Shown piece after piece: positions 574-24,591 of a DNA stretch of 43,947 nt. Every line of letters begins with the position of its first letter. The stretch's first letter is position 1. The DNA comes from a phage: sequence record PZ671982.1, one strand, 5' to 3'. The translations under genes were made by a program, and so were the position numbers. The notes below the pieces were generated by a model. It did not search any database, had not been told where the DNA came from, and saw only the letters and a program-made list of their open reading frames with translations.

Positions 574-1958
574 TGCGTAACTATGCGGCAGAACACCGCG
601 CACTGGAACGCGCGATCGCAAAGCGAAACAGACCGCCGCGCCCGACACGCGTTGCGCAGGCCGTCCGCCTGTATCAACCTGATTGCCTTCCGCACCAGGT
701 GGAACTACTGCGCGACACGAAGACTAAAATACTCGGCCTGTGTTCCGGCTTCGGCGGTGGAAAGTCGTGGGTCGCTGCGCGTAAGGTCATCCAGCTTTTA
801 ACCCTGAACCCAGGTCATGACGGCATCGTCACCGAACCGACTATTCCACTCCTGGTTAAAATCATGTATCCGGAACTGGAGAAGGCATTCGACGAGGCTG
901 GCTTCCGGTGGAAGTTCAATAAGCAGGACAAGATCTACAACGTGCTGGTAAAAGGCAAATGGACCCGCGTTATCTGTGAGTCAATGGAGAACTACACCCG
1001 CCTGATCGGTGTCAACGCCGCGTGGATTGTTGCCGATGAATTCGACACAACGAAGCAAGACGTCGCGCTGGCGGCATATCACAAATTGCTCGGTCGTCTG
1101 CGTGCGGGCTTCGTCCGCCAGTTCGTCATCGTGTCCACCCCGGAAGGCTACCGGGCGATGTATCAAATATTCGAGGTGGAGAAGGATAGCCAAAAGCGCT
1201 TGATCCGGGCGAAGACCACGGACAACCACCATTTACCGGCAGACTTTATCGACACGCTGCGTAGTCAATACCCGGCTAACCTGATCGACGCGTACCTGAA
1301 CGGCCTGTTTGTTAACCTTACGTCGGGCGCGGTGTACAAGATGTTCAACCGAGAGGAGAACGCCAGCGCCGAAGAAGTGCAGCCGGAGGACACGCTGATT
1401 ATCGGTATGGACTTTAACGTCACTAAGATGGCGGCGGTTGTGTATGTCAGACGGCAGCGAGTCACCGAGAACAAGGAGTTCCGCGACGAGATTCACGCGG
1501 TGGATGAATTTGTGGACCTGTTTGACACCCCGGCTATGATTGAGGCGATCGAGGAGCGCTACCCCGATCATTGTGCCGCCGGTCGTGTTGTCGTCTACCC
1601 GGATAGCAGCGGCAAATCCCGCAAAACGGTCAACGCGTCGTCGTCCGATATCGCGCAACTGGAAGACGCAGGCTTTGATGTGGAGTATGACAGCGTTAAC
1701 CCGCCTGTTAAAGACCGATTGATCGCGATGAATACGATGATGTGCAACTCGAAGGGCGTGCGCCAGTATTTTGTCAACCTGGATAAATGCCCTACACTAG
1801 CGAAATGTCTGGAACAGCAGGTGTACGACCTGAAGAAAGGCGAACCGGATAAAACTGCCGGTGTGGACCACATGAATGACGCGGCGGGCTACCCTATTGC
1901 GCACTTATTCCCTGTGATTCGTCCGATCGCCGTTGTTCCAACCGTAGACTTCTACTAA
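573..1958 (+). CDS. terminase large subunit
   Basis: 461 aa; Walker A-like LGLCSGFGGGKS near N-terminus, VADEFD Walker B-like, C-terminal nuclease-like region; position between small terminase and portal. Confidence 0.8.
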   Translation: MRNYAAEHRALERAIAKRNRPPRPTRVAQAVRLYQPDCLPHQVELLRDTKTKILGLCSGFGGGKSWVAARKVIQLLTLNPGHDGIVTEPTIPLLVKIMYPELEKAFDEAGFRWKFNKQDKIYNVLVKGKWTRVICESMENYTRLIGVNAAWIVADEFDTTKQDVALAAYHKLLGRLRAGFVRQFVIVSTPEGYRAMYQIFEVEKDSQKRLIRAKTTDNHHLPADFIDTLRSQYPANLIDAYLNGLFVNLTSGAVYKMFNREENASAEEVQPEDTLIIGMDFNVTKMAAVVYVRRQRVTENKEFRDEIHAVDEFVDLFDTPAMIEAIEERYPDHCAAGRVVVYPDSSGKSRKTVNASSSDIAQLEDAGFDVEYDSVNPPVKDRLIAMNTMMCNSKGVRQYFVNLDKCPTLAKCLEQQVYDLKKGEPDKTAGVDHMNDAAGYPIAHLFPVIRPIAVVPTVDFY

Positions 1959-1969
1959 GGAAACCGACC

Positions 1970-3490
1970 ATGACCGTTAACGTTGACAACCAGCACCCGC
2001 TCTATGCGCGCATCGCGCCAGAGTGGAAAATGATCCGTGACTGCGTAGCAGGGGAGCGCGCCGTGAAGGCGTGCGGGCCATTGTACCTGCCACACCCAGC
2101 CAGCGGCGACACCACCGACCCGAAATCGCGTGCGCGCTATAAGGCATATAAGCAACGTGCTGTCTTCCTGAACGCCACCGCCCGCACACTGAATGCCCTG
2201 TTAGGCGTGGCCTTCGCCAAACCGGTGAGTATGGACCTTTCCGGGGCAATGGCTGACCTGATTGATGACGTAGACGGCAGCGGGATGCCGCTGGCGCAAC
2301 TCCTGCGCGGCGCTATGTCGGAAGTGCTGCAATCGGGCCGCGCTGGCTTTATGGTGGACTACGACCGCCAGGCGCATTTTGACGAACTGGGTAACGTAGT
2401 GCCGCAGACCGCCGCTGAAATGGCGGCACACCGCCCGCTTATCCGCCTGTATACGGCTGAACAGATCATCAACTGGCGGCAGACACACGGGGTCGACACG
2501 CTAATCGTGCTGAAGGAGACGGACGAAATCAGCACCGAAGACCCGGACGACTTCGCAAACCACGAGGTAACCATCTGGACCGAGCTTCGCATGATTGACG
2601 GCAAGGCACACGCCCGCCGCTGGTTTTACAACGCTGACACGTCCGAGGTGCAAATGGACTTGCCGCGGGGATTCACCCGCACCGACCTTGTACCATTGGT
2701 GGATGCTTCCGGTAATGCGCTTACGCAACTGCCTTTCTGTTGGTGTGGCGCGGTGGATAACAATGCAACACCCGATGCCGCACCGCTGGCGGATATCGCG
2801 TCCATCAACATTAAGCACTACAACGCCGAAGCCGACGTCGCAGAGATTGCGCACATCGTGGGCCAGCCTACGCTCATTACAACCGGTCTGACCCAATCAT
2901 GGGCTGATAAAAACCTGAAGGGCGGCATTGCGCTCGGGGCAACTAAGGGCGTTATCCTGGGCCAGAATATGGACGCTAAACTTCTTCAGGCGGAGGAGCG
3001 CAACCTGTCTGTTGCCCTATGTGAGCGCCGCGAATTGCAAATGGCTAAACTGGGCGCTGCCCTGGTTGAGAAGGGGACCGCACCTAAGACGGCAACCGAA
3101 GCAGCCTACGATGCGCAGACTGATAACAGTATCCTGTCACTGATTGCCGGTAACGTTGAGAAGGCTTTCAACCGTGCGCTGCAAATCGTAAAGCTGTTCA
3201 CGGGCGACACCGCTGATCAACGCGTAACGCTGAACAAGTTCTACACCGAAATCACGGTTGACGCACAGCTTATGACCGCAATGATGGCGGGTGTGCAGAC
3301 TGGCACGGTCCGTCTGGCGGACTTTATCAAGTGGATGATGGCCCAGGGCGTCATTGATGACTCGCAAACCGTCGAGCAGGTGGAAGACGAACTGCGAAAT
3401 CAGAATCCATTACCTCAAATGTCCCCGGATGCGGTAGAATCTACCGAAGAAGACCCGGACAAGGTAGCGGACAATGGCGAAGACAATTAA
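1970..3490 (+). CDS. portal protein
   Basis: 506 aa ORF immediately after terminase, acidic C-terminus, RBS AAGGAAA upstream; synteny terminase-portal-MuF. Confidence 0.75.
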   Translation: MTVNVDNQHPLYARIAPEWKMIRDCVAGERAVKACGPLYLPHPASGDTTDPKSRARYKAYKQRAVFLNATARTLNALLGVAFAKPVSMDLSGAMADLIDDVDGSGMPLAQLLRGAMSEVLQSGRAGFMVDYDRQAHFDELGNVVPQTAAEMAAHRPLIRLYTAEQIINWRQTHGVDTLIVLKETDEISTEDPDDFANHEVTIWTELRMIDGKAHARRWFYNADTSEVQMDLPRGFTRTDLVPLVDASGNALTQLPFCWCGAVDNNATPDAAPLADIASINIKHYNAEADVAEIAHIVGQPTLITTGLTQSWADKNLKGGIALGATKGVILGQNMDAKLLQAEERNLSVALCERRELQMAKLGAALVEKGTAPKTATEAAYDAQTDNSILSLIAGNVEKAFNRALQIVKLFTGDTADQRVTLNKFYTEITVDAQLMTAMMAGVQTGTVRLADFIKWMMAQGVIDDSQTVEQVEDELRNQNPLPQMSPDAVESTEEDPDKVADNGEDN

Positions 3491-4577
3491 TCAATATATG
3501 GCGGATCGATTGATTCGCCGACACATCTTCACCCAGCGCCTGAGTAATGACCAGGCGCGAAGGGTGCTGTCCATGTGGGAGAAGTTCCGGCCCACTTTAC
3601 TGGGTAAGTTGACCGAGTTGCTTGATGGCAAATCGTCAATGAACAACAAGGCACTTTCCACCCTGCTAACGCAACTCGATAAGACAGTTAAAGCAGAATT
3701 GCGCACCGAGTTTAAGTTGTTGGCTGAAAGCCTTCAGGAGTTTGCCGACACCGAGGCCGATTATCTCACCGACACATTAACGGCAGCGATCCAGCCGGTG
3801 GTCGCCGTACCTGCGGTCGAGGTGGTGGGCGTAGTGACCGGTGCGCAGATCGCAGCGACGGCTATGAAAAACCCGTTCCAGGGTAATACGATGACGCAAT
3901 GGCCCGACTCACTTTCCGAGTGGACCAGGACGCAGATCGGGAATCAGGTGCGCGCTGGATTCATCCAGGGCAAGCCAACGATGGAAATTATAGCGGACGT
4001 GAGGCGCGCGCTCGGCGGTCGTAGTGCGCAAGCTATCTCAAGCGTTGTTAAGTCCGCAGTCAACCACTATGCAGCGACGGCCCGCGAACTAATGGTGAAA
4101 GCAAATGACGATATTCTCGAAGGTCGCCAGTGGTTATCTACATTGGACACGCATACTTCTCCCATGTGCCAGCTACGCGATCGCCTGTTTTATCCGGTTG
4201 ATGTTACTCCCAACACCAAAGGAAAGCGCGGCGGGAAAGTGGTGGCTGGATCACAATATGGCGCTGGTCCGGGCAAGTTGCATTATTGTTGCCGGTCGAC
4301 GGAGACGTGGAAGGTTAAAGGCATGGAAGATTGGCCCAGTGGTAAACGTCCGGCACTGAAGGCTGACGCGGGTCGATTGCTGAGTGAGCAGGTTGACGCG
4401 CAGACTGATTTCTTCTCATGGGTGCAGCGCCAGCCGCGCCATATCCTGGAAGAATTATATGGCGTGCAACGCGCCGACCAGATTATGCGCGGCGTGAAAG
4501 TGCCGAAGATGTTTACCGATTCTGGCGAACTGATGACTATTGCGAAGCTTAAAAACCGGGGGTTATGGCGTGATTAA
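3474..4577 (+). CDS. head morphogenesis protein (MuF / SPP1 gp7-like)
   Basis: 367 aa, overlaps portal stop; position and size typical of minor head protein after portal. Confidence 0.55.
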   Translation: MAKTINQYMADRLIRRHIFTQRLSNDQARRVLSMWEKFRPTLLGKLTELLDGKSSMNNKALSTLLTQLDKTVKAELRTEFKLLAESLQEFADTEADYLTDTLTAAIQPVVAVPAVEVVGVVTGAQIAATAMKNPFQGNTMTQWPDSLSEWTRTQIGNQVRAGFIQGKPTMEIIADVRRALGGRSAQAISSVVKSAVNHYAATARELMVKANDDILEGRQWLSTLDTHTSPMCQLRDRLFYPVDVTPNTKGKRGGKVVAGSQYGAGPGKLHYCCRSTETWKVKGMEDWPSGKRPALKADAGRLLSEQVDAQTDFFSWVQRQPRHILEELYGVQRADQIMRGVKVPKMFTDSGELMTIAKLKNRGLWRD

Positions 4578-15565: not shown

Positions 15566-16306
15566 ATGTTAACGAAAAAGGTTAAAAGCGATATCGCCGC
15601 GCACGTTGCGGCATGTCTGCCAGAAGAAGCCTGTGGGCTGGTAGTCATGGTAGGTCGTAAGCAAGTATTTGTCCCATGTCTGAACGTATTCGAAGACCCG
15701 ACCGGCGTGCGTTCACGTAAAGACGCGTTTACTATTAGTGATATGGCCTGGATGGATGCCGAGGAGATGGGCGACGTCGTGCGCGTAGTCCACTCGCATC
15801 CAGGCCAGCGAGAGCTTACCCCCTCACTGGGCGACGTTAACGGATGCAACGGCAGCGGCGTAGTCTGGACCATCACTAACGAATATGGCGACTTTATCGA
15901 GATCGACCCTGAAGACCCGCCGCTGGTAGGCCGCCGATTTGTTCTCGGAATTACAGATTGTTATGGCCTCGTCATGGACTGGCACAAAAAGCAGGGTGTA
16001 AACCTGCCAGACTTCCGCGTGCCGTATAACTGGTGGGAGACAGGAGAAAATCTGTATATGGATAATTGGTACGGTGCTGGCTTCAGGGAATGCGAGGAGA
16101 ATACGCCGGGGGCAATGGTCATCATGCAGATTAGCGCGCCTGTGCCTAACCACGCTGGGATATTCCTTCCGGGCAACCAACTACTACACCATATCTACGG
16201 CAGCCTGTCGAGCGTGATTCCCTTCCGGGCAGGATTTTTCCGCGACAATGTGGTTAAATGGGTACGTCATAAAGACCTACCGGGGAATATCACAGAATGG
16301 CAATGA
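15566..16306 (+). CDS. tail assembly protein K-like (MPN/JAB + NlpC/P60-like)
   Basis: JAB/MPN-type motif VVHSHPGQ...S..D and downstream Cys-containing ITDCYGLV motif; synteny between L-like and I-like genes. Confidence 0.7.
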   Translation: MLTKKVKSDIAAHVAACLPEEACGLVVMVGRKQVFVPCLNVFEDPTGVRSRKDAFTISDMAWMDAEEMGDVVRVVHSHPGQRELTPSLGDVNGCNGSGVVWTITNEYGDFIEIDPEDPPLVGRRFVLGITDCYGLVMDWHKKQGVNLPDFRVPYNWWETGENLYMDNWYGAGFRECEENTPGAMVIMQISAPVPNHAGIFLPGNQLLHHIYGSLSSVIPFRAGFFRDNVVKWVRHKDLPGNITEWQ

Positions 16307-16914
16307 CCACGTTTAAATTGTACGGCGTCTTAGGGCGTCGTTTTGGTAAAGTGCATAAGATGGACTGCTTCACTCCGGGCGAGGGAATCACCGGCCTGTG
16401 TGTGAAGTTGCCAGGGTTACAAGACTTTTTAATGTCAGCCCACCTGGACAACATGATGTTCAAGGTGCGCAAGGGCGACCACACGATGACCGGCTATGAT
16501 GAGCTGGGCGAGTTCCACGGCAACCGCGTCGTCACCATCGCGCCGGTTATGACTGGCGCAAAAAGAGGGTTGGGACAATTGCTGGCGGGTGTCGCGATCG
16601 TAGTGGCGTCGTTCTATACGGGCGGACTCGCTACTGCCGCTTTCGGGGCTTCGGCTGCAACCGCTGCCGCTATCGGTACAGCGACGTTTTCGTTCGGCAT
16701 GTCGATGGCGCTGGGTGGCGTTATGCAATTGCTGTCGCCTCAACCGAAAGGATTGCAGACACGGCAGGATGTGGATAACAAGGCGTCGTATGCGTTCGGC
16801 GGTCCGGTAAACACGACCGCGCAAGGTACGGCACTTGGTGTATTATGGGGCGAGCGTGAGATCGGCGGCGCTATTATTTCAGCCGGAATCGTAACCGAGG
16901 ATTTGAACGAATGA
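16297..16914 (+). CDS. tail assembly protein I-like
   Basis: 205 aa with Gly/Ala-rich hydrophobic C-terminal half; overlaps K-like stop; precedes J-like gene. Confidence 0.6.
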   Translation: MAMTTFKLYGVLGRRFGKVHKMDCFTPGEGITGLCVKLPGLQDFLMSAHLDNMMFKVRKGDHTMTGYDELGEFHGNRVVTIAPVMTGAKRGLGQLLAGVAIVVASFYTGGLATAAFGASAATAAAIGTATFSFGMSMALGGVMQLLSPQPKGLQTRQDVDNKASYAFGGPVNTTAQGTALGVLWGEREIGGAIISAGIVTEDLNE

Positions 16915-19900
16915 CGATTATTTACGACGTCACGGGCCATAAAGGCGGCGGCGGCAAACAGCACACACCACAGGAGACGCCCGATAGCCTGCATTCGCTG
17001 GCTAAAATCCGCATCTTGCTTGCGCTGGGTGAGGGTGAATTCGAAGGTATTACAGACCCTAACGAATTACGGCGGCGCGTATATCTGGACGGAACACCGA
17101 TCCAGAACGCAGACCTGTCGGAAAACTTCCCAGGCGCGCGCGTGGAGTTCCGCCCGGGCACACAGCACCAGGATGTGATCCACGGATTTTCAGCGGTGGA
17201 AAGTGAGCAATCCGTTGGCGTAAAACTGGAAAACGGCACGCCGTGGGTGCGCCAGATTAACGACACCAGTCTTGACGCCGTGCGCATTCGTGTCGGTATT
17301 CCGGCCCTGTACACAAACGAAGATAATGGCGACCTGGTGGGCGGGCGCATCGACTATAAGATCGTTGTGTATACGGATAACGCGGACCCGCGTGAGTTCA
17401 GATTCGCCGCCGTTGGTAAAACAATGTCGCTGTATGAGCGCGACCACCGCATCGAATTACCTCCGAACGTTAACACCGGCTGGCGCGTGGAGGTGCACCG
17501 CATAACGGCAGACTCCACATCGGCGAAAGTGGTTAATGATATCCAGGTGCAATCCATCACTGAGGTTATCGACGCCCGCCTGCGTTACCCGCTAACCGCG
17601 CTGTTGTTCGTGGAGTTCGACGCTAAAGCGTTCCAGAACATCCCGCGCGTGTCCATTAAGTGCAAAGGTCGCAAGGTGCTGATACCGAACAACTACGACC
17701 CGATTAATCATACCTATTCCGGTGACTGGGACGGCACGTTTAAACGCGCATGGACGGATAACCCTGCGTGGCACTGGTACGATATTTGTATTACTGAGCG
17801 CTTCGGCCTCGGTCGGCGTATCAAACCGCAAATGCTAAACCGATACGCGCTCTACCAGATTGCGCAGCGCTGCGATCAGTTGGTCAGCGACGGCAACGGT
17901 GGCCGAGAAATCCGCTTTAAGAATGATATGTACATTCAGTCACAGACGGATGCCTGGACCGTGCTTAAGGATTTGGCTGCCATCTTCGCCGGAATGACCT
18001 GGTGGGGCAACCAGATGTTGAATATCGTCAGTGACCAACCGGTCGCAGCAGTGTCGCACACTATCACCAACGCCTCGGTAATTGATGGTCGATTCGACTA
18101 CGCATCTGGCAGCCAGAAAACTCGCTATTCCACATTCGCGGTAGCATACGGCAATCCGAAAAACCACTATGATGACGCTATCGCAACGGGCCAGCGCGTC
18201 GAACTGGTGCGCCGCCATAAGATCAACCGTCTTGATATCACGGCGATCGGCTGTACGCGCGAGTCAGAAGCGCAACGCCGTGGGCACTGGGCGCTAATTT
18301 CAAACCAGCTTGACCAGCAAGTTAGTTTTAAGGTGGGCATGGAGGGGTTATTCTTTATCCCAGGTAGCGTAGTCGCGATCGCAGATACTAATATTTCTGG
18401 CGGATTCGAGACTCGTGGCGGTCGGCTGTTGTCGGACCCAGGAACGCGTACCGTGCTGAACACGGACAGCGAAATCACGTTCCGCCCTGGCGATAAGTTC
18501 CTGGTACGCACCGATAGCGGAAATGTGGAGACTCGCGAGATCGCCAGCGTCAACGGCAACAAGGTCACGCTAAAAACCGCACTGGATGCCGACCCGATTC
18601 CCGACCAGCCGTTTTGCGTTGACGGCGATGATATCCAGTTGCATAAATTCCGCATCACCGATCTGGAGTATGACGACGCTACGAGCACTTTCTCGGTGCG
18701 CGGGATTGAATATAACGATAGCAAGTATGACGCCGTTGACAATGGCGCGCGGCTTGACCCAGGTATTTTCACGCAAGTGCCAGACGGTGTAATGAAGGGG
18801 CCGGAATCCGTGACCATCACCCCGTCGCAGATCTCATCGCAAGGCCAGCTAATCACCAACGTGGATATTGTATTCCCGCCGGTGAAGGACGCCGTGGTTT
18901 ATGAAATCCAGTGGCGGCGTACCAGCCTTCAGAATATGGAAATCCAGTGGGGTAACGACTGGGTGAACATCCCGCGCACGGCGTCGAATGGTGCGCACAT
19001 CCCTAACGTGTTCTCCGGCAACTACCAGGCACGCGTCCGCGCAATTGGTATGGGCGAAATCTCGTCCCCGTGGGTGTCTTCCGAAATCACGCCGGTGGAA
19101 GGTCGCCTCGGTGGGCTTAATGCGCCAATCATCACCAACGCGATTTCAGGTTTGCACCAGATCCTATGGAAGTGGAATCACAACAACGCTGCGACTGATA
19201 TCTCATACACCGAGCTTGAAGTGCGCAAGACGGGTGAAACGGAATGGAAATTCTTAACAAACGTCCCATATCCGGGCGCGGAGTACGCGCAAACGTCGCT
19301 GGAGTTCGGAATTTACCAGCAGTTGCGCGCCCGAGTAGCGGATAAAATCGGCAACCTGTCGGACTGGTCCGCCCCGTTCGAAGGCCAGGTGAGTGACAAA
19401 GTTGACGAGTACATGAAGGGGCTTGATGACGAGTTCTTGACTTCCGAGGATGGTAAACACTTCCAGGAAGCTATTAACACGATCCCGCAAGGCATTTATG
19501 AGTCAATGCTCACTGACGCCCAGCAGCTATTCAACGCCCGCGCCGAGTACAAAGGGATTTATGCGGAAATCAAGGTGGCGTATAACGTGGCGGCAGACGC
19601 CCACAAGGCCGTCGCGCAACTGGAAACGTTGATCGGCACTCGCCTTGACGATGCGGAAGCGGCAATCCACACGTTGCAGACCGCGCAAAGCACGCACGAA
19701 CAAGCGTTTGCCCAGTACCAACAAACTGTTGCCGCTAAGTTCGGGGAGCAGGAAGCCGCCATCCAGTCAGTGCAAACGGCAACGGCGGACGTGGCTGGCG
19801 CACTGGCGGAGTACAAGACCCAGGTGGCGGCACAGTTCGGTCAGCAGTCCGCCGCTATCGAGCAGAAGATGACGTCTTCGTTTAACCATGCTGGTGGCAG

Positions 19901-20363
19901 CGCCACATATAGCCTTAAGGCTGGCGTGACGTATAACGGGACTTACTATGACGCCGGTATGCAGCTTTCGGTCGTTGCGGACGGTGGCGCGGTTAAATCC
20001 CGCATCGCGTTCAAGGCAGACCAGTTCTACATCATGCACCCGTCGAATGGGTCGCTTTCGTCCGCGTTCATTGTTGACGGGGGGCAGGTGTATATTGACA
20101 CGGCACGCATCAAGGATGCGTCAATCAACTTCGCACAGATCACGGACACGCTGCAATCAAACAACTTCGCTTCCGGGTCGCGCGGATGGCGCATCCAGAA
20201 GGGCGGCGCTGCGGAGTTTAACGAAGTAACGGTCCGCGGCAGGCTGTACGCTGATAGTGGTGATTTTGCTTTTAACGGAATAAACAACACCGTGCAAATT
20301 AACGGGAATGGGGTGACGGTTAACCTGCCTGGAGGAGGGAGGGTTGTATTAGGTACATTCTGA
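16911..20363 (+). CDS. central tail fiber / host specificity protein J-like
   Basis: 1150 aa; N-terminus GHKGGGGKQHTPQETPDSL...EGEFEG resembles gpJ-type N-termini; largest tail gene after I-like gene. Confidence 0.8.
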   Translation: MTIIYDVTGHKGGGGKQHTPQETPDSLHSLAKIRILLALGEGEFEGITDPNELRRRVYLDGTPIQNADLSENFPGARVEFRPGTQHQDVIHGFSAVESEQSVGVKLENGTPWVRQINDTSLDAVRIRVGIPALYTNEDNGDLVGGRIDYKIVVYTDNADPREFRFAAVGKTMSLYERDHRIELPPNVNTGWRVEVHRITADSTSAKVVNDIQVQSITEVIDARLRYPLTALLFVEFDAKAFQNIPRVSIKCKGRKVLIPNNYDPINHTYSGDWDGTFKRAWTDNPAWHWYDICITERFGLGRRIKPQMLNRYALYQIAQRCDQLVSDGNGGREIRFKNDMYIQSQTDAWTVLKDLAAIFAGMTWWGNQMLNIVSDQPVAAVSHTITNASVIDGRFDYASGSQKTRYSTFAVAYGNPKNHYDDAIATGQRVELVRRHKINRLDITAIGCTRESEAQRRGHWALISNQLDQQVSFKVGMEGLFFIPGSVVAIADTNISGGFETRGGRLLSDPGTRTVLNTDSEITFRPGDKFLVRTDSGNVETREIASVNGNKVTLKTALDADPIPDQPFCVDGDDIQLHKFRITDLEYDDATSTFSVRGIEYNDSKYDAVDNGARLDPGIFTQVPDGVMKGPESVTITPSQISSQGQLITNVDIVFPPVKDAVVYEIQWRRTSLQNMEIQWGNDWVNIPRTASNGAHIPNVFSGNYQARVRAIGMGEISSPWVSSEITPVEGRLGGLNAPIITNAISGLHQILWKWNHNNAATDISYTELEVRKTGETEWKFLTNVPYPGAEYAQTSLEFGIYQQLRARVADKIGNLSDWSAPFEGQVSDKVDEYMKGLDDEFLTSEDGKHFQEAINTIPQGIYESMLTDAQQLFNARAEYKGIYAEIKVAYNVAADAHKAVAQLETLIGTRLDDAEAAIHTLQTAQSTHEQAFAQYQQTVAAKFGEQEAAIQSVQTATADVAGALAEYKTQVAAQFGQQSAAIEQKMTSSFNHAGGSATYSLKAGVTYNGTYYDAGMQLSVVADGGAVKSRIAFKADQFYIMHPSNGSLSSAFIVDGGQVYIDTARIKDASINFAQITDTLQSNNFASGSRGWRIQKGGAAEFNEVTVRGRLYADSGDFAFNGINNTVQINGNGVTVNLPGGGRVVLGTF

Positions 20364-20365
20364 AA

Positions 20366-20390
20366 CTAAAGCCCCGCCAGGGGCTTTAAT
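20366..20390. terminator. bidirectional terminator (AAAGCCCC-gcca-GGGGCTTT) between convergent genes
   Basis: Perfect stem flanked by A run 5' and T run 3'. Confidence 0.55.
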
Positions 20391-21321
20391 ACATGTTGGG
20401 AAGGTACGGCAGCAGAGTTGGGATCGTAACGTCGGGTCTGTTGCCGATTTCGTACCTTACAATTCGTGAGCCAGTTCCCGACCTTACATATCCGCCGCTC
20501 ATAACCACGCCTTTGTTTCTTAGTTCCTTGTAGGCGGGTATAGCCCTTGTATTGAACCCACACCTTAGTATTGGGAAGTAGGAGTCACCAATATACTGAT
20601 TGCTACCCGACAGACTTATAAACCCAGACACAATAAGTGGTCTGGTAACTGTTGAAAGTGTACAGGCGCCTTTGTGGTTAAATATGTTTAACCCCGGCCC
20701 CGGCACGGGCGCAACCATCTGGAAAATAACCAAATCCATAGTAACACTTCCGGGTGTGTGCCCGGTATCATTTGTGTTTATGTTTGTGCATATCAACCGA
20801 TTAACACCGTCGTACTCAACTGAAACACCAGAATTATCCCACCTGCCGAACGGTATGCCGTATATTGGAAGGGTGTAACTATCATGGAATGATATAGTTT
20901 GAGCAAATTTGCAGACAAGCAACCTGTCAGTTGTGGTTATCGATGTGAAATCCGTGCTGTCGGCAACGTAAAGCCCCTGCCCTGTCGATGACCTAAGAAC
21001 CTCAACTACAGTCCCTGAAAACTGCGTTACGCGGTCTGGATAGCCGTTCTCATAGCCAATAGATATTGTTCCGCTGGATTCTGTTGAAGAAAAGCCCTTT
21101 ATATAATAAACCTCAACACCACGATCTAGTTCGAAGGAGTATGCGCCATTGTTCGGCAGAAGAAACCTTGAAGCCCCTTCATTACCTTGAATAGGGAATG
21201 ACTTGCTAAACCCGCCACTTGAAACATTGAAGTTCCCCGCAAAATTCAAGGCACGCATACCCGCGGTGATTGTCATCGGGTTGCGTCCGTCATTAAGATC
21301 AATGTAGATACCTTGTGCCAT
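20386..21321 (-). CDS. hypothetical 311-aa Gly/Ser/Thr/Asn-rich protein; candidate receptor-binding protein
   Basis: Long uninterrupted - strand ORF in AT-richer DNA, ATG 21321 overlapping upstream lipoprotein stop (TAATG); no signal peptide; beta-rich composition. Confidence 0.5.
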   Translation of the reverse strand: MAQGIYIDLNDGRNPMTITAGMRALNFAGNFNVSSGGFSKSFPIQGNEGASRFLLPNNGAYSFELDRGVEVYYIKGFSSTESSGTISIGYENGYPDRVTQFSGTVVEVLRSSTGQGLYVADSTDFTSITTTDRLLVCKFAQTISFHDSYTLPIYGIPFGRWDNSGVSVEYDGVNRLICTNINTNDTGHTPGSVTMDLVIFQMVAPVPGPGLNIFNHKGACTLSTVTRPLIVSGFISLSGSNQYIGDSYFPILRCGFNTRAIPAYKELRNKGVVMSGGYVRSGTGSRIVRYEIGNRPDVTIPTLLPYLPNMY

Positions 21322-21551
21322 TAGTTCCACTCCCGAGAGCCATAATCACGAACTGAGCCACCATGCCCTTTAATTCCGTCATAACGAATATCAACTTCAC
21401 CCGCCGGAACAACTACACCGCCTTTCCATTTAGCTACACATACGCCGCTTGCTTGTGTCGCGCACCAACCATCCGGACGCGGGCCAGAAGAGCAACCAAC
21501 AGCCACACCCACAACCACGGCAATGATTGCAGATTTGATTAAAGTTTTCAT
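21321..21551 (-). CDS. small lipoprotein (76 aa), candidate Llp/Cor-type superinfection-exclusion protein
   Basis: ATG 21551 with RBS GGAG; signal peptide with lipobox VAVGC; Cys-containing mature part. Confidence 0.6.
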
Positions 21552-21582
21552 GGTATCATCTCCAATATTTGGTCGAGTTTTA

Positions 21583-21610
21583 GTATTACACCGCTCGATC
21601 AAGAATGCAA
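21583..21610 (-). promoter_or_regulatory. sigma70-like promoter (TTGCAT-16-TAATAC) for lipoprotein operon
   Basis: Hexamers read on - strand; -35 is part of ATTGGTTGCAT motif. Confidence 0.4.
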
Positions 21611-21631
21611 CCAATTTATGAGGATTTAGCT

Positions 21632-23437
21632 ATGGCAGCGGGCACACTATCCGTAACGAATAACAGCAAGGCGGTTGTAGGGGTCGGCACAACGTTTACC
21701 TCGTTTAACGCCGGCGACTTCTTAACGCTGGTGGTAGGACAAGTCCCCTACACCGTAGCAATCGCATCTATCGAAAGCGACACGGCGCTTACTCTGGTGT
21801 TACCGTTCGACGGCCCAACGGCAACCGGCCTAGCGTGGGATGGCGTTAAGCGCGATACCATGTCACTGGCAACGATGGGCGTTACCGTACAGGCACAGAA
21901 AGCATTGCGCTTGATGATTGCAGATGAAAACAACTGGCGTGCGATCTTCGGCGACGCTGAAGAAATTACCGTGACGTTACCTAACGGGCAAGTCATGCAG
22001 GGTATGTCATGGGGCTACCTGTCGGAATTGCTTAAGAACGTAGATCCGGTTGAGATGCGCGACCTCGCAGCGCAAGCCGAAGCGTCAAAATCGGCAGCGC
22101 AAGGATTTCGTAATGAGGCCGAAGGCTTCAAGAACGATACGCAGGCCGTCAAAGACCAGACCAACCAGATTAAGGCGGATACGCAGGCCGTCAAAGACCA
22201 GACCAACCAGATTAAGGCGGATACGCAGGCTATCAAAGACCAGACGAACCAGATTAAGGCGGATACGCAGGCTATCAAAGACCAGACGAACCAGATCAAG
22301 ACTGACACCGGCGTTATGAGGGACGAGGCCAACACCGCGAAGACTGACGCGCAAGCTGCCAGCACTGCCGCGCAGGGATTCCGCGATCAGGCCGAGGAGT
22401 GGGCGCAAAGCGTTAACGCGGATAACCTGCTAACCAAATCTGGCAACCTTGCTGGGCTTGCGGATAAAACGGCGTCGTGGGCGAACCTTATGCCCCCCGG
22501 CCCGCTTCGACTCGGAGCGGACCCCATTGCAGATCTGGATGCCGCGACTAAACGCTGGGCGTTGGCCTTATTAAACTATGGCACCGCGATTGATAGATGG
22601 ACGGTACTCTCCGAAGTCGCCACCAAACCCGCTGACGGCAGTGTCGTTGAAGGCGGATCACTCTACTCACGTTATGCCGTTAATGGAATTGCGGAAGCGG
22701 ACATGGCCTTGCGTATCAGAGCGGTGATCGGGGAGGAATACCACGCGCGTCTGGGTGTGTACAACCAAACAAACGGCCGCACCGCCAATTACGACTTTAA
22801 TGATCGAGGCACTTTCTCCGCGCAAAGCCTGCGTTCTTTGGGTCAAATTGACTCCGATGGTGGTATTACTATCCAGAACCAGGGATGGCCCGGCATAACC
22901 TTTAAATCGAATAGGTATGCATCGCCGGACACGCAGGTTGGCGCAATGACATTAATGGAAGCAACGGGGGTAGATGGGGACATCTCTACTGTCAGCCTTA
23001 TCAGGCGGCGTGGGGATGGCAGCAGCACGGGGCAAATCATTGTAACATTCCCAACCACGGCAGGGGTTATCGCGCTGCAAGGTACGTCGGGTCGCGAGTA
23101 TAAGAAAGATATCACCGATGCTGACGCAAGCGAAGCTATGGACCGCATTAACCGCCAGCGCCTTGTTACCTTCGTGTACAAGGACGACGAGCAGCAGCGC
23201 GTGCGCTTCGGTGTTATCGCAGAGGAAGCGGAGTTAATCGCGCCGCAATATATCAAGCACATCGAAGTACCCGTCGAGGATATCCTCGACGAAGACGGCA
23301 ACAAGATCGGGGAGAAAACGGTAGACCGACCGTCCGTAGACGTTAACCCGATCGTGATGGACTTGATGGGGTGTATTCAATATCTCAATAAGCAGGTGGA
23401 GGAATTGAAGGCCGAGATCGAGGCGATGAAGAAATAA
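21632..23437 (+). CDS. lateral (L-shaped-type) tail fiber with C-terminal intramolecular chaperone-like domain
   Basis: Start ATG 21632 (RBS GAGGA); four 14-aa tandem repeats; C-terminal ~110 aa resembles autoproteolytic chaperone domains of phage fibers. Confidence 0.65.
   Translation: MAAGTLSVTNNSKAVVGVGTTFTSFNAGDFLTLVVGQVPYTVAIASIESDTALTLVLPFDGPTATGLAWDGVKRDTMSLATMGVTVQAQKALRLMIADENNWRAIFGDAEEITVTLPNGQVMQGMSWGYLSELLKNVDPVEMRDLAAQAEASKSAAQGFRNEAEGFKNDTQAVKDQTNQIKADTQAVKDQTNQIKADTQAIKDQTNQIKADTQAIKDQTNQIKTDTGVMRDEANTAKTDAQAASTAAQGFRDQAEEWAQSVNADNLLTKSGNLAGLADKTASWANLMPPGPLRLGADPIADLDAATKRWALALLNYGTAIDRWTVLSEVATKPADGSVVEGGSLYSRYAVNGIAEADMALRIRAVIGEEYHARLGVYNQTNGRTANYDFNDRGTFSAQSLRSLGQIDSDGGITIQNQGWPGITFKSNRYASPDTQVGAMTLMEATGVDGDISTVSLIRRRGDGSSTGQIIVTFPTTAGVIALQGTSGREYKKDITDADASEAMDRINRQRLVTFVYKDDEQQRVRFGVIAEEAELIAPQYIKHIEVPVEDILDEDGNKIGEKTVDRPSVDVNPIVMDLMGCIQYLNKQVEELKAEIEAMKK
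22136..22303 (+). repeat. 4 tandem copies of a 42-bp unit inside tail fiber gene
   Basis: Near-identical units starting 22136, 22178, 22220, 22262 encoding DTQA(V/I)KDQTNQIKA. Confidence 0.85.
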
Positions 23438-23440
23438 ATA

Positions 23441-23466
23441 AAAGGGGCCGTATGGCCCCTTTTTTA
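23441..23466. terminator. bidirectional terminator (GGGGCC-gtat-GGCCCC, A run 5', T run 3')
   Basis: Between convergent fiber gene and last early gene. Confidence 0.6.
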
Positions 23467-24039
23467 GTTTGAGTTTTCCCAATCCATTTTGCGCCGCACC
23501 AGCGGGCTTTCGTAATATTCCTTCCCATCCACTTCCACTAAAGGCCAGTCGTTCACTATAACGTATGGCTCCGCGATATCCTCAATCACGCCGTGCGCGC
23601 TATGTTGTCCGAAATCTACGCCCACCAGGATAACCCCGGCAACGCGACGGGTGAGGTATTCGCGAGCGCAACGGGCCTCGACCAGTCCGCGACGGATGCC
23701 GCTGGTAGCTTTTACCTCGTAGGCCCAGACGGCATCAATCATATGTTCTCGGAAGTCGGGGCCGGACTTAACCTTGCGTTTACCGACCATGATAATATCT
23801 CCGCGGTCGATAGTGTTAGCGCTAAACAGGCCGGTACGCATTAGCAAACCTTGCGGGATACAGCTACGCCCGCCTGCCTGCCCTTCGAGGTACATGCCAG
23901 CAAACATTTCGCCTAGCACACCTACGAGTCTGCTTTGCTTGCACGCGTCAGACTTGTATCGCCACTGGTCAAACTCGATGCTTGCTATCATTGCCGCCAG
24001 GTGGAATTGTTTACCGGTTATTTCGTATTCGCCGTACAT
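23464..24039 (-). CDS. hypothetical protein, possible PD-(D/E)xK-type nuclease fold
   Basis: 191 aa, RBS GAGGA; motif GDIIMVG...IDAVWAYEVK suggests D...ExK core (weak). Confidence 0.45.
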   Translation of the reverse strand: MYGEYEITGKQFHLAAMIASIEFDQWRYKSDACKQSRLVGVLGEMFAGMYLEGQAGGRSCIPQGLLMRTGLFSANTIDRGDIIMVGKRKVKSGPDFREHMIDAVWAYEVKATSGIRRGLVEARCAREYLTRRVAGVILVGVDFGQHSAHGVIEDIAEPYVIVNDWPLVEVDGKEYYESPLVRRKMDWENSN

Positions 24040-24081
24040 CGTGTGGTCCTCATTGATGCGGGCCGAAGCCCGCGATTAGAA

Positions 24082-24591
24082 TTATTTAAGTGCGCCAGTC
24101 ACCAGTGTTTTTTCCATGTTACGGAAATCTTCCTGCGTCATGCAGATTTTCGATCCGTCTTCGCCAGTGAGCACGACCATAGGCTGGACGTCCTGATCTA
24201 CGATGCCAAAATTAGCGGCTGTAACCGTTTTACCGGGGGTAAATGCGCCGCCTGTTTTGACGGGCCAACCTTTGAGGCTATCGAATTGTGCTGCCGTTGT
24301 ATCGATCTGAATCTCGTCATGCCCGGTCATGTAAGACTCGCCCAGCAGGGCGGCATACGCCACCAGATCCACGATGTTATCTTCCTGGTGCTTACGGTGC
24401 TGGCGCACCAGCTTCAGGCAGATCAGGAAGGTCCAGGCTTCTTGCTCGGTAAGGTCGCGACCGGTAAGCGCGTTAAACACGGCAGCAATTTGTTTAGCGC
24501 TGCGTTCTTCTTTCGCGTTGTCATAGCCGTTTTCTTTCCCGCGCTGTTCCATAGTGGTGGCGGCGTTTTTGCAGTATTCGAATGCTTTCAC
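24082..24591 (-). CDS. hypothetical protein
   Basis: ORF extends to 24669 but that N-terminus is built from the TTGGTTGCA promoter palindrome; more likely start GTG 24591 (RBS AAGGG) or ATG 24552. Confidence 0.45.
   Translation of the reverse strand: MKAFEYCKNAATTMEQRGKENGYDNAKEERSAKQIAAVFNALTGRDLTEQEAWTFLICLKLVRQHRKHQEDNIVDLVAYAALLGESYMTGHDEIQIDTTAAQFDSLKGWPVKTGGAFTPGKTVTAANFGIVDQDVQPMVVLTGEDGSKICMTQEDFRNMEKTLVTGALK

Follow-up and report, generated by a model that had tools for sequence, protein, structure and literature searches.

Which function can be attributed to a pair of genes lying antisense between two tail fiber genes, and do their products serve host recognition? The question is raised by the locus that follows the J-like tail-tip gene in PZ671982.1, a complete HK578-like Dhillonvirus genome that was analyzed over its whole length of 43,947 nucleotides (hereafter, the window). 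The original prediction, made from the DNA letters and their open reading frames, had proposed that the larger product of this cassette may be the terminal receptor-binding protein (RBP) of the phage and the smaller one, a lipoprotein, its cognate superinfection-exclusion factor. Our analysis indicates, with a probability of roughly 0.9 and on grounds of homology, that the cassette corresponds to the LptD-specific host-recognition and exclusion module of a small siphophage. Such a module is already known, as small Escherichia coli siphophages bind LptD and then block it (Maffei et al., 2021; Dunbar et al., 2025). For the window itself, the sequence shows how the genes are arranged, to which families they belong, how they relate to the solved complexes and where the module starts and stops; that the 311-aa protein binds LptD, resides in the virion and docks on J at the proposed site is inferred, as are the promoter and when the genes are expressed.

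The features of the locus are compiled in Table 1. The arrangement described in the original prediction, namely a − strand two-gene cassette with TAATG coupling between the J-like and lateral fiber genes, was seen directly in the sequence: the TAA stop codon of the lipoprotein gene (21323-21321) and the ATG of the 311-aa ORF (21321-21319) have one base in common, and both genes display a Shine-Dalgarno motif 8 nt upstream (GGAG at 21563-21560 for the lipoprotein, and GGGAG at 21334-21330 for the 311-aa protein). The 311-aa gene spans 936 bp, is convergent with J and lies 22 nt past the J stop codon. The AT-richer composition noted earlier was likewise found, with a GC content of 0.472 in the cassette against 0.543 across the window, a value in the bottom 0.5% for segments of that size. 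Pfam scores far over the cut-offs mark both ORFs as genuine genes rather than chance ORFs.

Table 1. Coordinates of the features of the receptor-specificity locus in the window.
Feature	Coordinates	Strand	Remarks
J-like central tail-tip protein	16911..20363	+	1150 aa; predicted to display the receptor-binding protein as a platform
J C-terminal ~45-57 codons	20193..20363	+	co-travels with the cassette; DNA-homology limits
GC-rich hairpin, candidate bidirectional terminator	20365..20390	.	from folding
311-aa receptor-binding protein (predicted), LptD-specific DUF6453 family, Rtp44 subtype	20386..21321	-	PF20051
76-aa outer-membrane lipoprotein precursor, predicted Rtp45-type exclusion factor	21321..21551	-	PF24052
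Divergent intergenic region, candidate promoter and lipoprotein Shine-Dalgarno motif	21552..21631	-	backbone sequence, outside the swapped module
Lateral tail fiber	21632..23437	+	phrog_1980 tail fiber; Peptidase_S74 chaperone domain

The 311-aa protein matched the Pfam family PF20051 (DUF6453) with 415.8 bits (E 1.2e-124; score cut-off of 25 bits), its residues 4-291 covering profile positions 1-290 of 291, and it also matched phrog_1265 (E 7.6e-98). When the PDB was searched with phmmer, its residues 1-311 aligned to residues 1-321 of 9rpt_C, that is, RBPOeko (E 1.4e-40), chain C of 9RPW and 9RQI being matched as well, and this match settles the homology to a solved RBP. Identity amounted to 99.4% with HK578 gp23, 94.5% with the Bas14 orthologue (bas14_0025), 77.2% with Rtp44 and 33.7% (global) with RBPOeko, with which the protein shares a conserved N-terminus (M..GI.ID.NDGR..M.ITAG.RA) and C-terminus (PNMY). 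A fold of two beta-sandwiches with tip loops is implied via this homology only; the model that AlphaFold2 built from the sequence alone was too poor for use (mean pLDDT 31.6, pTM 0.21). As anticipated, the protein is rich in Gly, Ser, Thr and Asn (36% of its residues), and hydropathy analysis revealed neither a signal peptide nor an N-terminal hydrophobic or transmembrane segment, the maximum over 19 residues being 1.31. Taken together, DUF6453 membership, the homology to RBPOeko and the identity to the Bas14 protein support its predicted role as the terminal RBP. A literature search on 'DUF6453' yielded only an unrelated genome note.

The annotation of this family points elsewhere, phrog_1265 carrying the label 'moron, auxiliary metabolic gene and host takeover / membrane protein'. 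Following this label, the pair could be a moron or defense cassette unrelated to adsorption, with the 311-aa product acting as a host 'membrane protein' and the lipoprotein excluding other phages only; the AT-richer DNA, the antisense orientation and the existence of stand-alone lipoprotein homologues in Kuravirus, which occur in early regions without the 311-aa gene, would fit this possibility. Nevertheless, it is highly improbable, given that the 311-aa protein carries no signal peptide or transmembrane segment, that its homologue was solved as a soluble RBP on the exterior of LptD, and that receptor use varies with the allele present at the locus, with which the J C-terminus co-varies. The original prediction had also allowed for an unrelated exclusion or defense module, which is not borne out: a PADLOC scan gave no defense-system match at E ≤ 1 for either protein, and the cassette occupies a receptor-specificity locus that is conserved among phages of this group. 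A scan of NCBIfam gave no match for either protein. These results render outdated the 'membrane protein / moron' label that PHROG and RefSeq apply to the 311-aa protein family.

The smaller product proved to be a lipoprotein as first described (76 aa, lipobox VAVGC). Its first 20 residues precede SSG, with a lipobox A-V-G-C ending in Cys20, which aligns with the lipobox Cys of Rtp45, and Ser at +2; the signal peptide is hydrophobic (maximum Kyte-Doolittle value of 2.57). It matched PF24052 (Phage_lipoprotein) with 110.2 bits (E 4.9e-32; score cut-off of 27 bits), residues 1-75 covering profile positions 1-80 of 80, phrog_4281 (E 1.6e-28) and, in the PDB, Rtp45 (9rps_D; E 1.3e-38). The mature lipoprotein is 91.2% identical to Rtp45, and the whole protein 94.7% identical to its Bas14 counterpart. 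Cys30 and Cys38, the disulfide pair of Rtp45, are conserved, and likewise invariant in SEOeko and SU10 gp104; furthermore, residues 30-35 (CATQAS) are identical to the Rtp45 strand that pairs with LptD residues 318-323. Homology to a protein solved on LptDE therefore supports the proposed function of cognate superinfection-exclusion factor. Membership in the Cor family was considered and rejected, since the 31% identity to Gluttony Cor lies almost entirely in the signal peptide and the Pfam scan returned no Cor family.

The assignment of LptD as the receptor draws on published work with relatives of the window phage. For Bas14, Bas18 and Bas01, spontaneous resistant mutants carried in-frame lptD deletions, and the terminal receptor of Bas14 was identified as LptD by genetic mapping (PMC8594841); the lptD loop mutants ΔY658-Y678 and ΔL394-V396 block these same three phages. 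RBPOeko, a DUF6453 protein, was solved by cryo-EM inserted in the extracellular face of LptDE, in the SfLptDE-RBPOeko structures 9RPT, 9RPW and 9RQI, and 9RPS corresponds to SfLptDEM-Rtp45 (PMC12685063). In the latter, Rtp45 sits on the periplasmic face of LptDE, between LptE and LptM, with a hairpin inserted into the LptD lumen, and forces loop EL4 into an RBP-excluding shape. In the same study, complex formation in vitro was very slow and partial, reaching 15-35% after 48 h, and the expression of Rtp44 failed; the exclusion role of Rtp45 was deduced from structure in published accounts (PMC12685063). Our literature search found no plating assay for Rtp45 exclusion, later papers being structural only or restating the assignment. 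Cloned rtp45 is said to have been reported by Wietzorrek and colleagues in 2006 as protecting cells against T5; if this is correct, the exclusion spectrum would not be fully explained.

The hairpin that Rtp45 inserts into the LptD lumen and the placement of Rtp45 between LptE and LptM, together with the co-translation of the lipoprotein with a late structural gene, could also suggest that the lipoprotein mainly hinders lipopolysaccharide export through LptDE, e.g., weakening the outer membrane before lysis, and that blocking of the RBP is a side effect. We regard this as very doubtful indeed, as no such effect has been reported, E. coli cells overexpressing Rtp45 together with LptDE were able to grow, and the analogous Llp and Cor proteins are receptor blockers.

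The original prediction had listed FhuA, BtuB and LptD as receptor types, and among these LptD is indicated, given the 94.5% identity to the RBP of Bas14, whose receptor was mapped genetically. Alternatively, the module might be of the same kind with an allele drifted towards another outer-membrane protein (e.g., FhuA, BtuB or YncD), or a second receptor might be needed, in which case LptD would not act alone as terminal receptor. Receptor-binding loops evolve fast, the conserved residues of the RBP family lie on the base and not on the LptD-binding tip (PMC13035648), identity to the solved RBP is only 34%, and Bas01, whose Rtp44 homologue is 96% identical, depends on both NupG and LptD; yet the NupG requirement was ascribed to a J domain and not to the RBP (2026 preprint). 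In addition, the resistance of the closely similar Bas14 maps to lptD, and the lipoprotein encoded alongside the RBP shares 91% identity with one solved on LptDE. The locus downstream of gpJ was linked to the receptor and confirmed across 101 siphoviruses (2026 preprint), and each of the four classes of receptor is matched there, 'without exception', by its own protein family, unrelated to the other three (PMC8594841; 2026 preprint). With these points weighed, a different or additional receptor is improbable.

A milder variant concerns the mode of binding. In the 311-aa protein, a Gly stands in place of Gln299, which was named as one of the residues of RBPOeko that touch LptD; because at least this contact is missing and identity is only 34%, an RBP of the Rtp44 subtype may bind LptDE otherwise. 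It is conceivable, although unlikely, that this subtype engages LptDE in a pose or state unlike that of RBPOeko, and that its coupling to the lipoprotein reflects an extra role, such as late tuning of LptDE and lipopolysaccharide export. In a related lead, the stand-alone Rtp45-like lipoproteins of Kuravirus podophages would extend LptDE blocking beyond the context of siphophage RBPs.

Under the preferred reading of an LptD-specific recognition and exclusion module, both genes would be read leftward on one transcript that begins in the divergent intergenic region and probably stops at the hairpin common to gene J, and their translation would be coupled. The 311-aa protein, lacking a signal peptide, would be synthesized in the cytoplasm and attached to the end of the trimeric J-like central fiber, where its conserved 'base', formed by both termini, probably meets the last ~45 residues of J. 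Its distal loops would enter the extracellular mouth of the barrel of LptD, in the LptDE lipopolysaccharide translocon, and this engagement would lead to irreversible adsorption and trigger DNA ejection. The 76-aa product, in turn, would be exported, lipidated on Cys20 and, in keeping with Ser at +2, delivered to the outer membrane, in its inner leaflet; there it would bind the periplasmic face of LptDE and push a beta-hairpin up the LptD lumen, displacing EL4 and blocking the docking of the RBP. In this way, the infected cell would be spared superinfection and the progeny would not be wasted on cell debris.

The J protein also bears on the limits of the module. It matched the Pfam families FNIII-A_GpJ, Phage-tail_3 and Phage_Tail_Tip, as well as phrog_31 'central tail fiber J', and is 97.6% identical to the J of Bas14. 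At the DNA level, the homology with Gluttony, a Dhillonvirus of the FhuA type, ends at 20192 and restarts at 21538, and only positions 20235-21500 of the window are alignable to Rtp, from another family. The last 45 aa of J display 78% identity to Rtp43 and 24% to the Gluttony J, whereas the remainder displays 36% and 97.5%, respectively. A C-terminal motif of J (RG.LYA.SG.FAFNG..NNTVQINGNG.TVNLP.GGRVV.G.F) is common to the window and the loci of Rtp, Bas01, Bas02 and Bas14. According to these comparisons, the exchangeable unit consists of the last ~45-57 J codons, the RBP gene and the mature part of the lipoprotein; by the same alignments, the promoter region is phage backbone and not part of the module. 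The C-terminal ~45-57 codons of J probably encode a docking adaptor for the RBP.

The same layout, with J convergent with the lipoprotein and 311-aa genes, is found in Bas14, Bas18, Rtp (Drexlerviridae) and the lambdoid mEp515. The rtp44/rtp45 locus of Rtp and the near-identical loci of Bas01, Bas02 and Bas14, described as the LptD-type 'bona fide RBP locus' (Maffei et al., 2021), harbor the same two families in the same order, with the stop/start overlap, and in the same convergent position relative to a gpJ ending in the shared motif. The Bas14 cassette is 91% identical to that of the window at the nucleotide level; Rtp differs in its Drexlerviridae backbone, that of the window being Dhillonvirus, and signal peptide and promoter are backbone-specific. 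The RBPOeko/SEOeko pair of Oekolampad (Bas18; Dunbar et al., PNAS 2025) belongs to the same genus, locus and two protein families, and the C-terminal tip of its J is related to that of the window; nonetheless, it represents a different allele, with 33.7% (RBP) and about 41% (lipoprotein) identity, and its genes lie 2 nt apart whereas those of the window overlap.

In the T1, phi80 and Gluttony (gp57-59) phages, the slot between J and the lateral fiber is occupied by Cor and an FhuA-type cassette. That of Gluttony has the promoter region and the first five lipoprotein codons (MKTLI) in common with the window, but its content is unrelated, comprising two + strand genes (100 and 224 aa) and cor on the − strand, with a different J C-terminus and a mature Cor unrelated to the Rtp45 type. 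Phage lambda shares a homologous J scaffold, although the LamB-binding domain of its gpJ lies inside J; conversely, the J of the window has just a short adaptor at its end, a separate gene being predicted to encode the RBP.

The resemblance to the T5 receptor module that had been proposed holds for the functional logic but not for the sequences. In T5, too, the central fiber carries at its tip an RBP that is monomeric and separately encoded, the FhuA-specific pb5 (Oad), and the adjacent gene encodes Llp, a small periplasm-facing outer-membrane lipoprotein that disables the receptor for the RBP. However, no pb5 or Llp chains were found among the PDB matches (E ≤ 0.01 for the RBP, E ≤ 1 for the lipoprotein), nor did either protein match any chain other than its LptDE-bound homologues or any other Pfam family. 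Moreover, the T5 pair targets a TonB-dependent transporter and that of the window, by homology, LptDE; exclusion of the Rtp45 type operates by steric displacement of EL4 via the lumen, in contrast to the long-range allostery of T5; and the window genes are co-oriented and translationally coupled, unlike those of pb5 and Llp.

Regarding transcription signals, the cassette had been assigned its own promoter (TTGCAT-16-TAATAC) and bidirectional terminators at both ends, and each of these claims stood in part. The hexamers TTGCAT (21610-21605) and TAATAC (21588-21583) are present at that spacing, with a sigma-70 consensus match of only 3/6 and 3/6; another candidate register is TTGCAT-17-AATACT, with TG in front. 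The promoter and terminator scan did not call the candidate promoter, and site counts in the region equaled those of shuffles. On the other hand, when the window is aligned with Bas14 and Gluttony (FhuA type), the columns of the intergenic region are on average 94% identical, and both hexamers as well as the MKTLI codons belong to this stretch; this conservation is suggestive of a promoter and no proof of one. As for the terminators, folding of the divergent intergenic end yielded no significant hairpin at 21552-21631 (z +0.3 and −1.25), but a GC-rich hairpin was recovered where the J and 311-aa genes converge. It has a stem of 9-11 bp, overlaps the 311-aa stop codon and folds with a ΔG of −15.7 kcal/mol on the + strand (z −2.7) and −17.0 kcal/mol on the − strand (z −3.1). 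The scan left this hairpin uncalled because the T-run is short once the full stem is counted.

With these findings, LptD, an essential and conserved outer-membrane protein, can be predicted from sequence as the terminal receptor of the phage, a value that is practical rather than conceptual. For engineering in which Dhillonvirus or Drexlerviridae phages exchange their receptor specificity, the breakpoints at ~20193-20235 and ~21500-21537 are the natural places to cut, and the lipoprotein may represent a ready-made ligand of LptDE.

Scans of the whole window for tRNAs and against Rfam gave no matches. Within the cassette, + strand ORFs of 46, 92, 42 and 59 aa run antisense to conserved coding sequence. 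The start of the lateral tail fiber gene agrees with the Bas14 and HK578 annotations and is preceded by a GAGGA Shine-Dalgarno motif; its product presumably touches glycans on the cell surface in an initial, reversible step.

The genome is a complete Dhillonvirus collinear with HK578 (94% identity across 94-96% of its length), and the region of the two-gene cassette shares 97% identity with HK578 and 91% with BASEL phage TheodorHerzl (Bas14); in the HK578 record, both genes are already annotated as resembling phage Rtp's rtp44 and rtp45. The cassette was confirmed as a real unit, with both ORFs, their TAATG overlap and a location between the 1150-aa J-like tail-tip gene on one side and the lateral tail fibre gene on the other. 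A Shine-Dalgarno sequence lies 8 nt upstream of both starts, and the GC content (47.2% vs 54.3% for the window) falls in the lowest 0.5% among equal-sized windows. Regarding the flanking signals, the original prediction was only partly borne out. The proposed promoter string, TTGCAT-16-TAATAC, is present and kept in related phages, but its hexamers match at 3/6 and 3/6 positions and it was not called by a promoter scan, in which the number of sites in the cassette region was no higher than in shuffles. From the bidirectional terminators proposed for both ends, one hairpin was recovered, in the 22-nt gap of the convergent J and 311-aa genes (dG -15.7 and -17.0 kcal/mol, z about -3), whereas folding of the divergent intergenic region at the other end yielded no significant structure. 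The longest ORF of the lateral tail fibre opens at ATG 21605; ATG 21632, preceded by a GAGGA Shine-Dalgarno 7 nt upstream, is the annotated start in Bas14 and HK578, and with this start the intergenic region measures 80 bp and the proposed -35 hexamer no longer overlaps the fibre gene but is intergenic.

Coordinates of the cassette, its surroundings and related loci
Feature	Position	Strand	Remarks
Lipoprotein ORF	ATG at 21551, TAA 21323-21321	-	76 codons
311-codon ORF	ATG 21321-21319, end 20386	-	first base is the last base of the lipoprotein TAA
TTGCAT-16-TAATAC string	21610-21583		
Hairpin	20365-20390		
42-bp tandem repeat	22136-22300		3.9 copies, 96% matches
Non-aligning part of fibre gene	~22400-23390		distal two-thirds
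Peptidase_S74 intramolecular chaperone domain	aa 496-548 of lateral tail fibre		end of hypervariable part
191-aa protein gene	23464-24039	-	directly downstream of, and convergent with, lateral fibre gene
SU10 (NC_027395) stand-alone Rtp45-family lipoprotein gene	3926-4207		
mEp515 (PP180003) cassette	1681-2915		

The 311-aa protein, 36% of which is Gly, Ser, Thr and Asn, belongs along its full length to Pfam DUF6453 (PF20051, 415.8 bits, E 1e-124) and also to phrog_1265. Its sole match among all PDB chains was chain C of 9RPT/9RPW/9RQI (327 aa, titled 'Tail fiber protein'; E 1.4e-40, end-to-end alignment), a protein inserted deep in the extracellular mouth of the LptD barrel, in an open state. 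An alternative reading, in which the pair constitutes a defence or moron cassette, could draw on the PHROG label 'membrane protein'; however, it is contradicted by this solved homologue, by a hydropathy profile displaying neither a hydrophobic N-terminus nor any transmembrane-like stretch, and by zero PADLOC matches for the cassette proteins. The labels in phrog_1265 ('moron... membrane protein') and RefSeq ('membrane protein') are at odds with a solved, soluble tail-tip receptor-binding protein (RBP), and automatic annotation will mislabel this gene (20386-21321). The protein is 99% identical to that of a phage deposited in 2012, and its global identity is 77.2% to Rtp44, the RBP of Rtp, and 33.7% to RBPOeko, the RBP of Dhillonvirus Oekolampad (Bas18) resolved by cryo-EM as chain C of 9RPT.

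The leader of the 76-aa product is hydrophobic and its lipobox reads A-V-G-C, with Ser directly after Cys20; the product matches PF24052 'Phage_lipoprotein' (110 bits). In the PDB it matched chain D of 9RPS (E 1.3e-38), which is Rtp45, the Rtp lipoprotein, in a structure bound to the periplasmic side of LptDE(M). The mature protein is 91% identical to Rtp45 and shares with it Cys20 as lipid anchor, the disulfide pair Cys30-Cys38 and strand 30-35 (CATQAS), which in Rtp45 pairs with LptD residues 318-323. By tblastn, 334 phage records matched the RBP and 278 the lipoprotein, in both cases mostly from siphophages of Escherichia, Klebsiella, Shigella and Salmonella. Exclusion by Rtp45 is, in the literature examined, a deduction from structure. 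In the original Rtp paper, cloned rtp45 reportedly gave T5 resistance.

With both families solved on LptDE, the interpretation of the pair as an RBP and its cognate exclusion lipoprotein is supported. The T5-type arrangement invoked for it holds as a functional analogy, namely a separate fibre-tip RBP with an adjoining periplasm-facing lipoprotein; the likeness to T5 pb5/Llp is not one of homology, and no pb5 or Llp chain was matched in the PDB search of both proteins. T5 uses a TonB-dependent transporter, which the predicted receptor here is not, and exclusion here would be steric, via the lumen, whereas that of T5 is allosteric.

According to Maffei et al. (PLoS Biol 2021, PMC8594841), no non-essential outer-membrane protein could be assigned as receptor for Bas14, Bas18, Bas01, Bas02 and three Queuovirinae phages, spontaneous resistant mutants carried in-frame lptD deletions, and all seven phages have, downstream of gpJ, the allele of a 'bona fide RBP locus' that is also present here. 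Further, a 2026 preprint on 101 siphoviruses confirms the correspondence between four unrelated protein families at this locus and the use of FhuA, BtuB, LptD and YncD, and cites the cryo-EM work as the LptD demonstration. From the shared allele and this family-receptor correspondence, LptD (LptDE) is the predicted receptor of our phage. A shifted receptor specificity is unlikely, given that the 311-aa protein is 94.5% identical to that of Bas14 and is accompanied by a matching lipoprotein. The LptD module is one already described, genetically in 2021 and structurally in 2025.

Homology and sequence show the RBP to be cytoplasmic and the lipoprotein to be exported to the outer membrane, both encoded by co-oriented, translationally coupled genes and both assigned to families with members solved on the two LptDE faces. 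The RBP would dock on the J tip as a separate subunit, and its tip loops would enter the LptD lumen, an entry that would commit the phage to ejecting its DNA. The lipoprotein may bind between LptE and LptM, close to LptD strands 5-8, where its hairpin, extending up the lumen, would displace EL4 by up to ~20 Å and preclude RBP binding, sparing the infected cell from superinfection and the progeny from debris, the same rationale stated for Llp and Cor. Since the lipoprotein shares its message with a structural gene, debris protection would be its more natural role.

Module boundaries were delimited by blastn of window positions 16000-24500 against the loci of Bas14, Gluttony (an FhuA-type Dhillonvirus) and Rtp (Drexlerviridae, a different family). 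Bas14 was alignable all through J and the cassette; Gluttony was 93% identical up to 20192, with no alignment again until 21538; and Rtp was alignable over 20235 to 21500 only, at 72%. In protein sequence, J is 97.5% identical to that of Gluttony in its first ~1090 residues and 24% in the last 45, a pattern reversed with Rtp43, the J of Rtp (36% overall, 78% in the last 45). The motif RG.LYA.SG.FAFNG..NNTVQINGNG.TVNLP.GGRVV.G.F is common to all LptD-type phages, including Bas18, and absent from the FhuA type, and at the opposite end the Gluttony cor gene has the promoter region, 5' UTR and codons 1-5 (MKTLI) in common with the lipoprotein gene. From these alignment breaks and the pattern at the J tip and 5' end, the horizontally exchanged unit is, as judged by sequence comparison, the J C-terminal adaptor together with the RBP and mature lipoprotein. 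Such a unit agrees with the notion of a J tip having to match its RBP, a point that the 2026 preprint raises too, and with the conserved residues of the RBP family, which sit at the base and not at the receptor-binding tip (PMC13035648). Both breakpoints fall within coding sequence (20193-20363, ~45-57 codons before the J end; 21500-21551, in the lipoprotein signal peptide), and the cor gene of FhuA-type Dhillonviruses is unrelated to the lipoprotein gene despite the common 5' region. The lambdoid phage mEp515 carries the lipoprotein and 311-aa genes with a stop/start overlap, convergent with J; therefore, the LptD module circulates in the lambdoid mEp group too.

Stand-alone Rtp45-family lipoprotein genes were also observed among the small early genes of Kuravirus (Gordonclarkvirinae) podophages of ~75-78 kb, including SU10, ES17, ECBP2, KBNP1711, 172-1 and Bas90. 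Their products retain the lipobox Cys, RPDGWC, the GVC cysteine, VP.GE.DMRY and the terminal EW. These podophages, reported as O-antigen-dependent, were absent among the DUF6453 matches listed. The finding points either to cross-exclusion of LptD-dependent siphophages or to an LptD step in Kuravirus infection that has gone unrecognised.

Within the lateral tail fibre gene, the 42-bp tandem repeat encodes 14-aa units (DTQA[VI]KDQTNQIKA) within a shaft predicted to be a coiled coil, and its copy number may vary among relatives. The distal part, with no DNA alignment to Bas14 or Gluttony and flanks 84-91% identical, is a second hypervariable host-range module. The 191-aa protein had no match in a Pfam scan; it matches phrog_10558 over its full length (E 1.5e-119), a family without assigned function, and is conserved in Bas14, Bas18, HK578 and SO-1.
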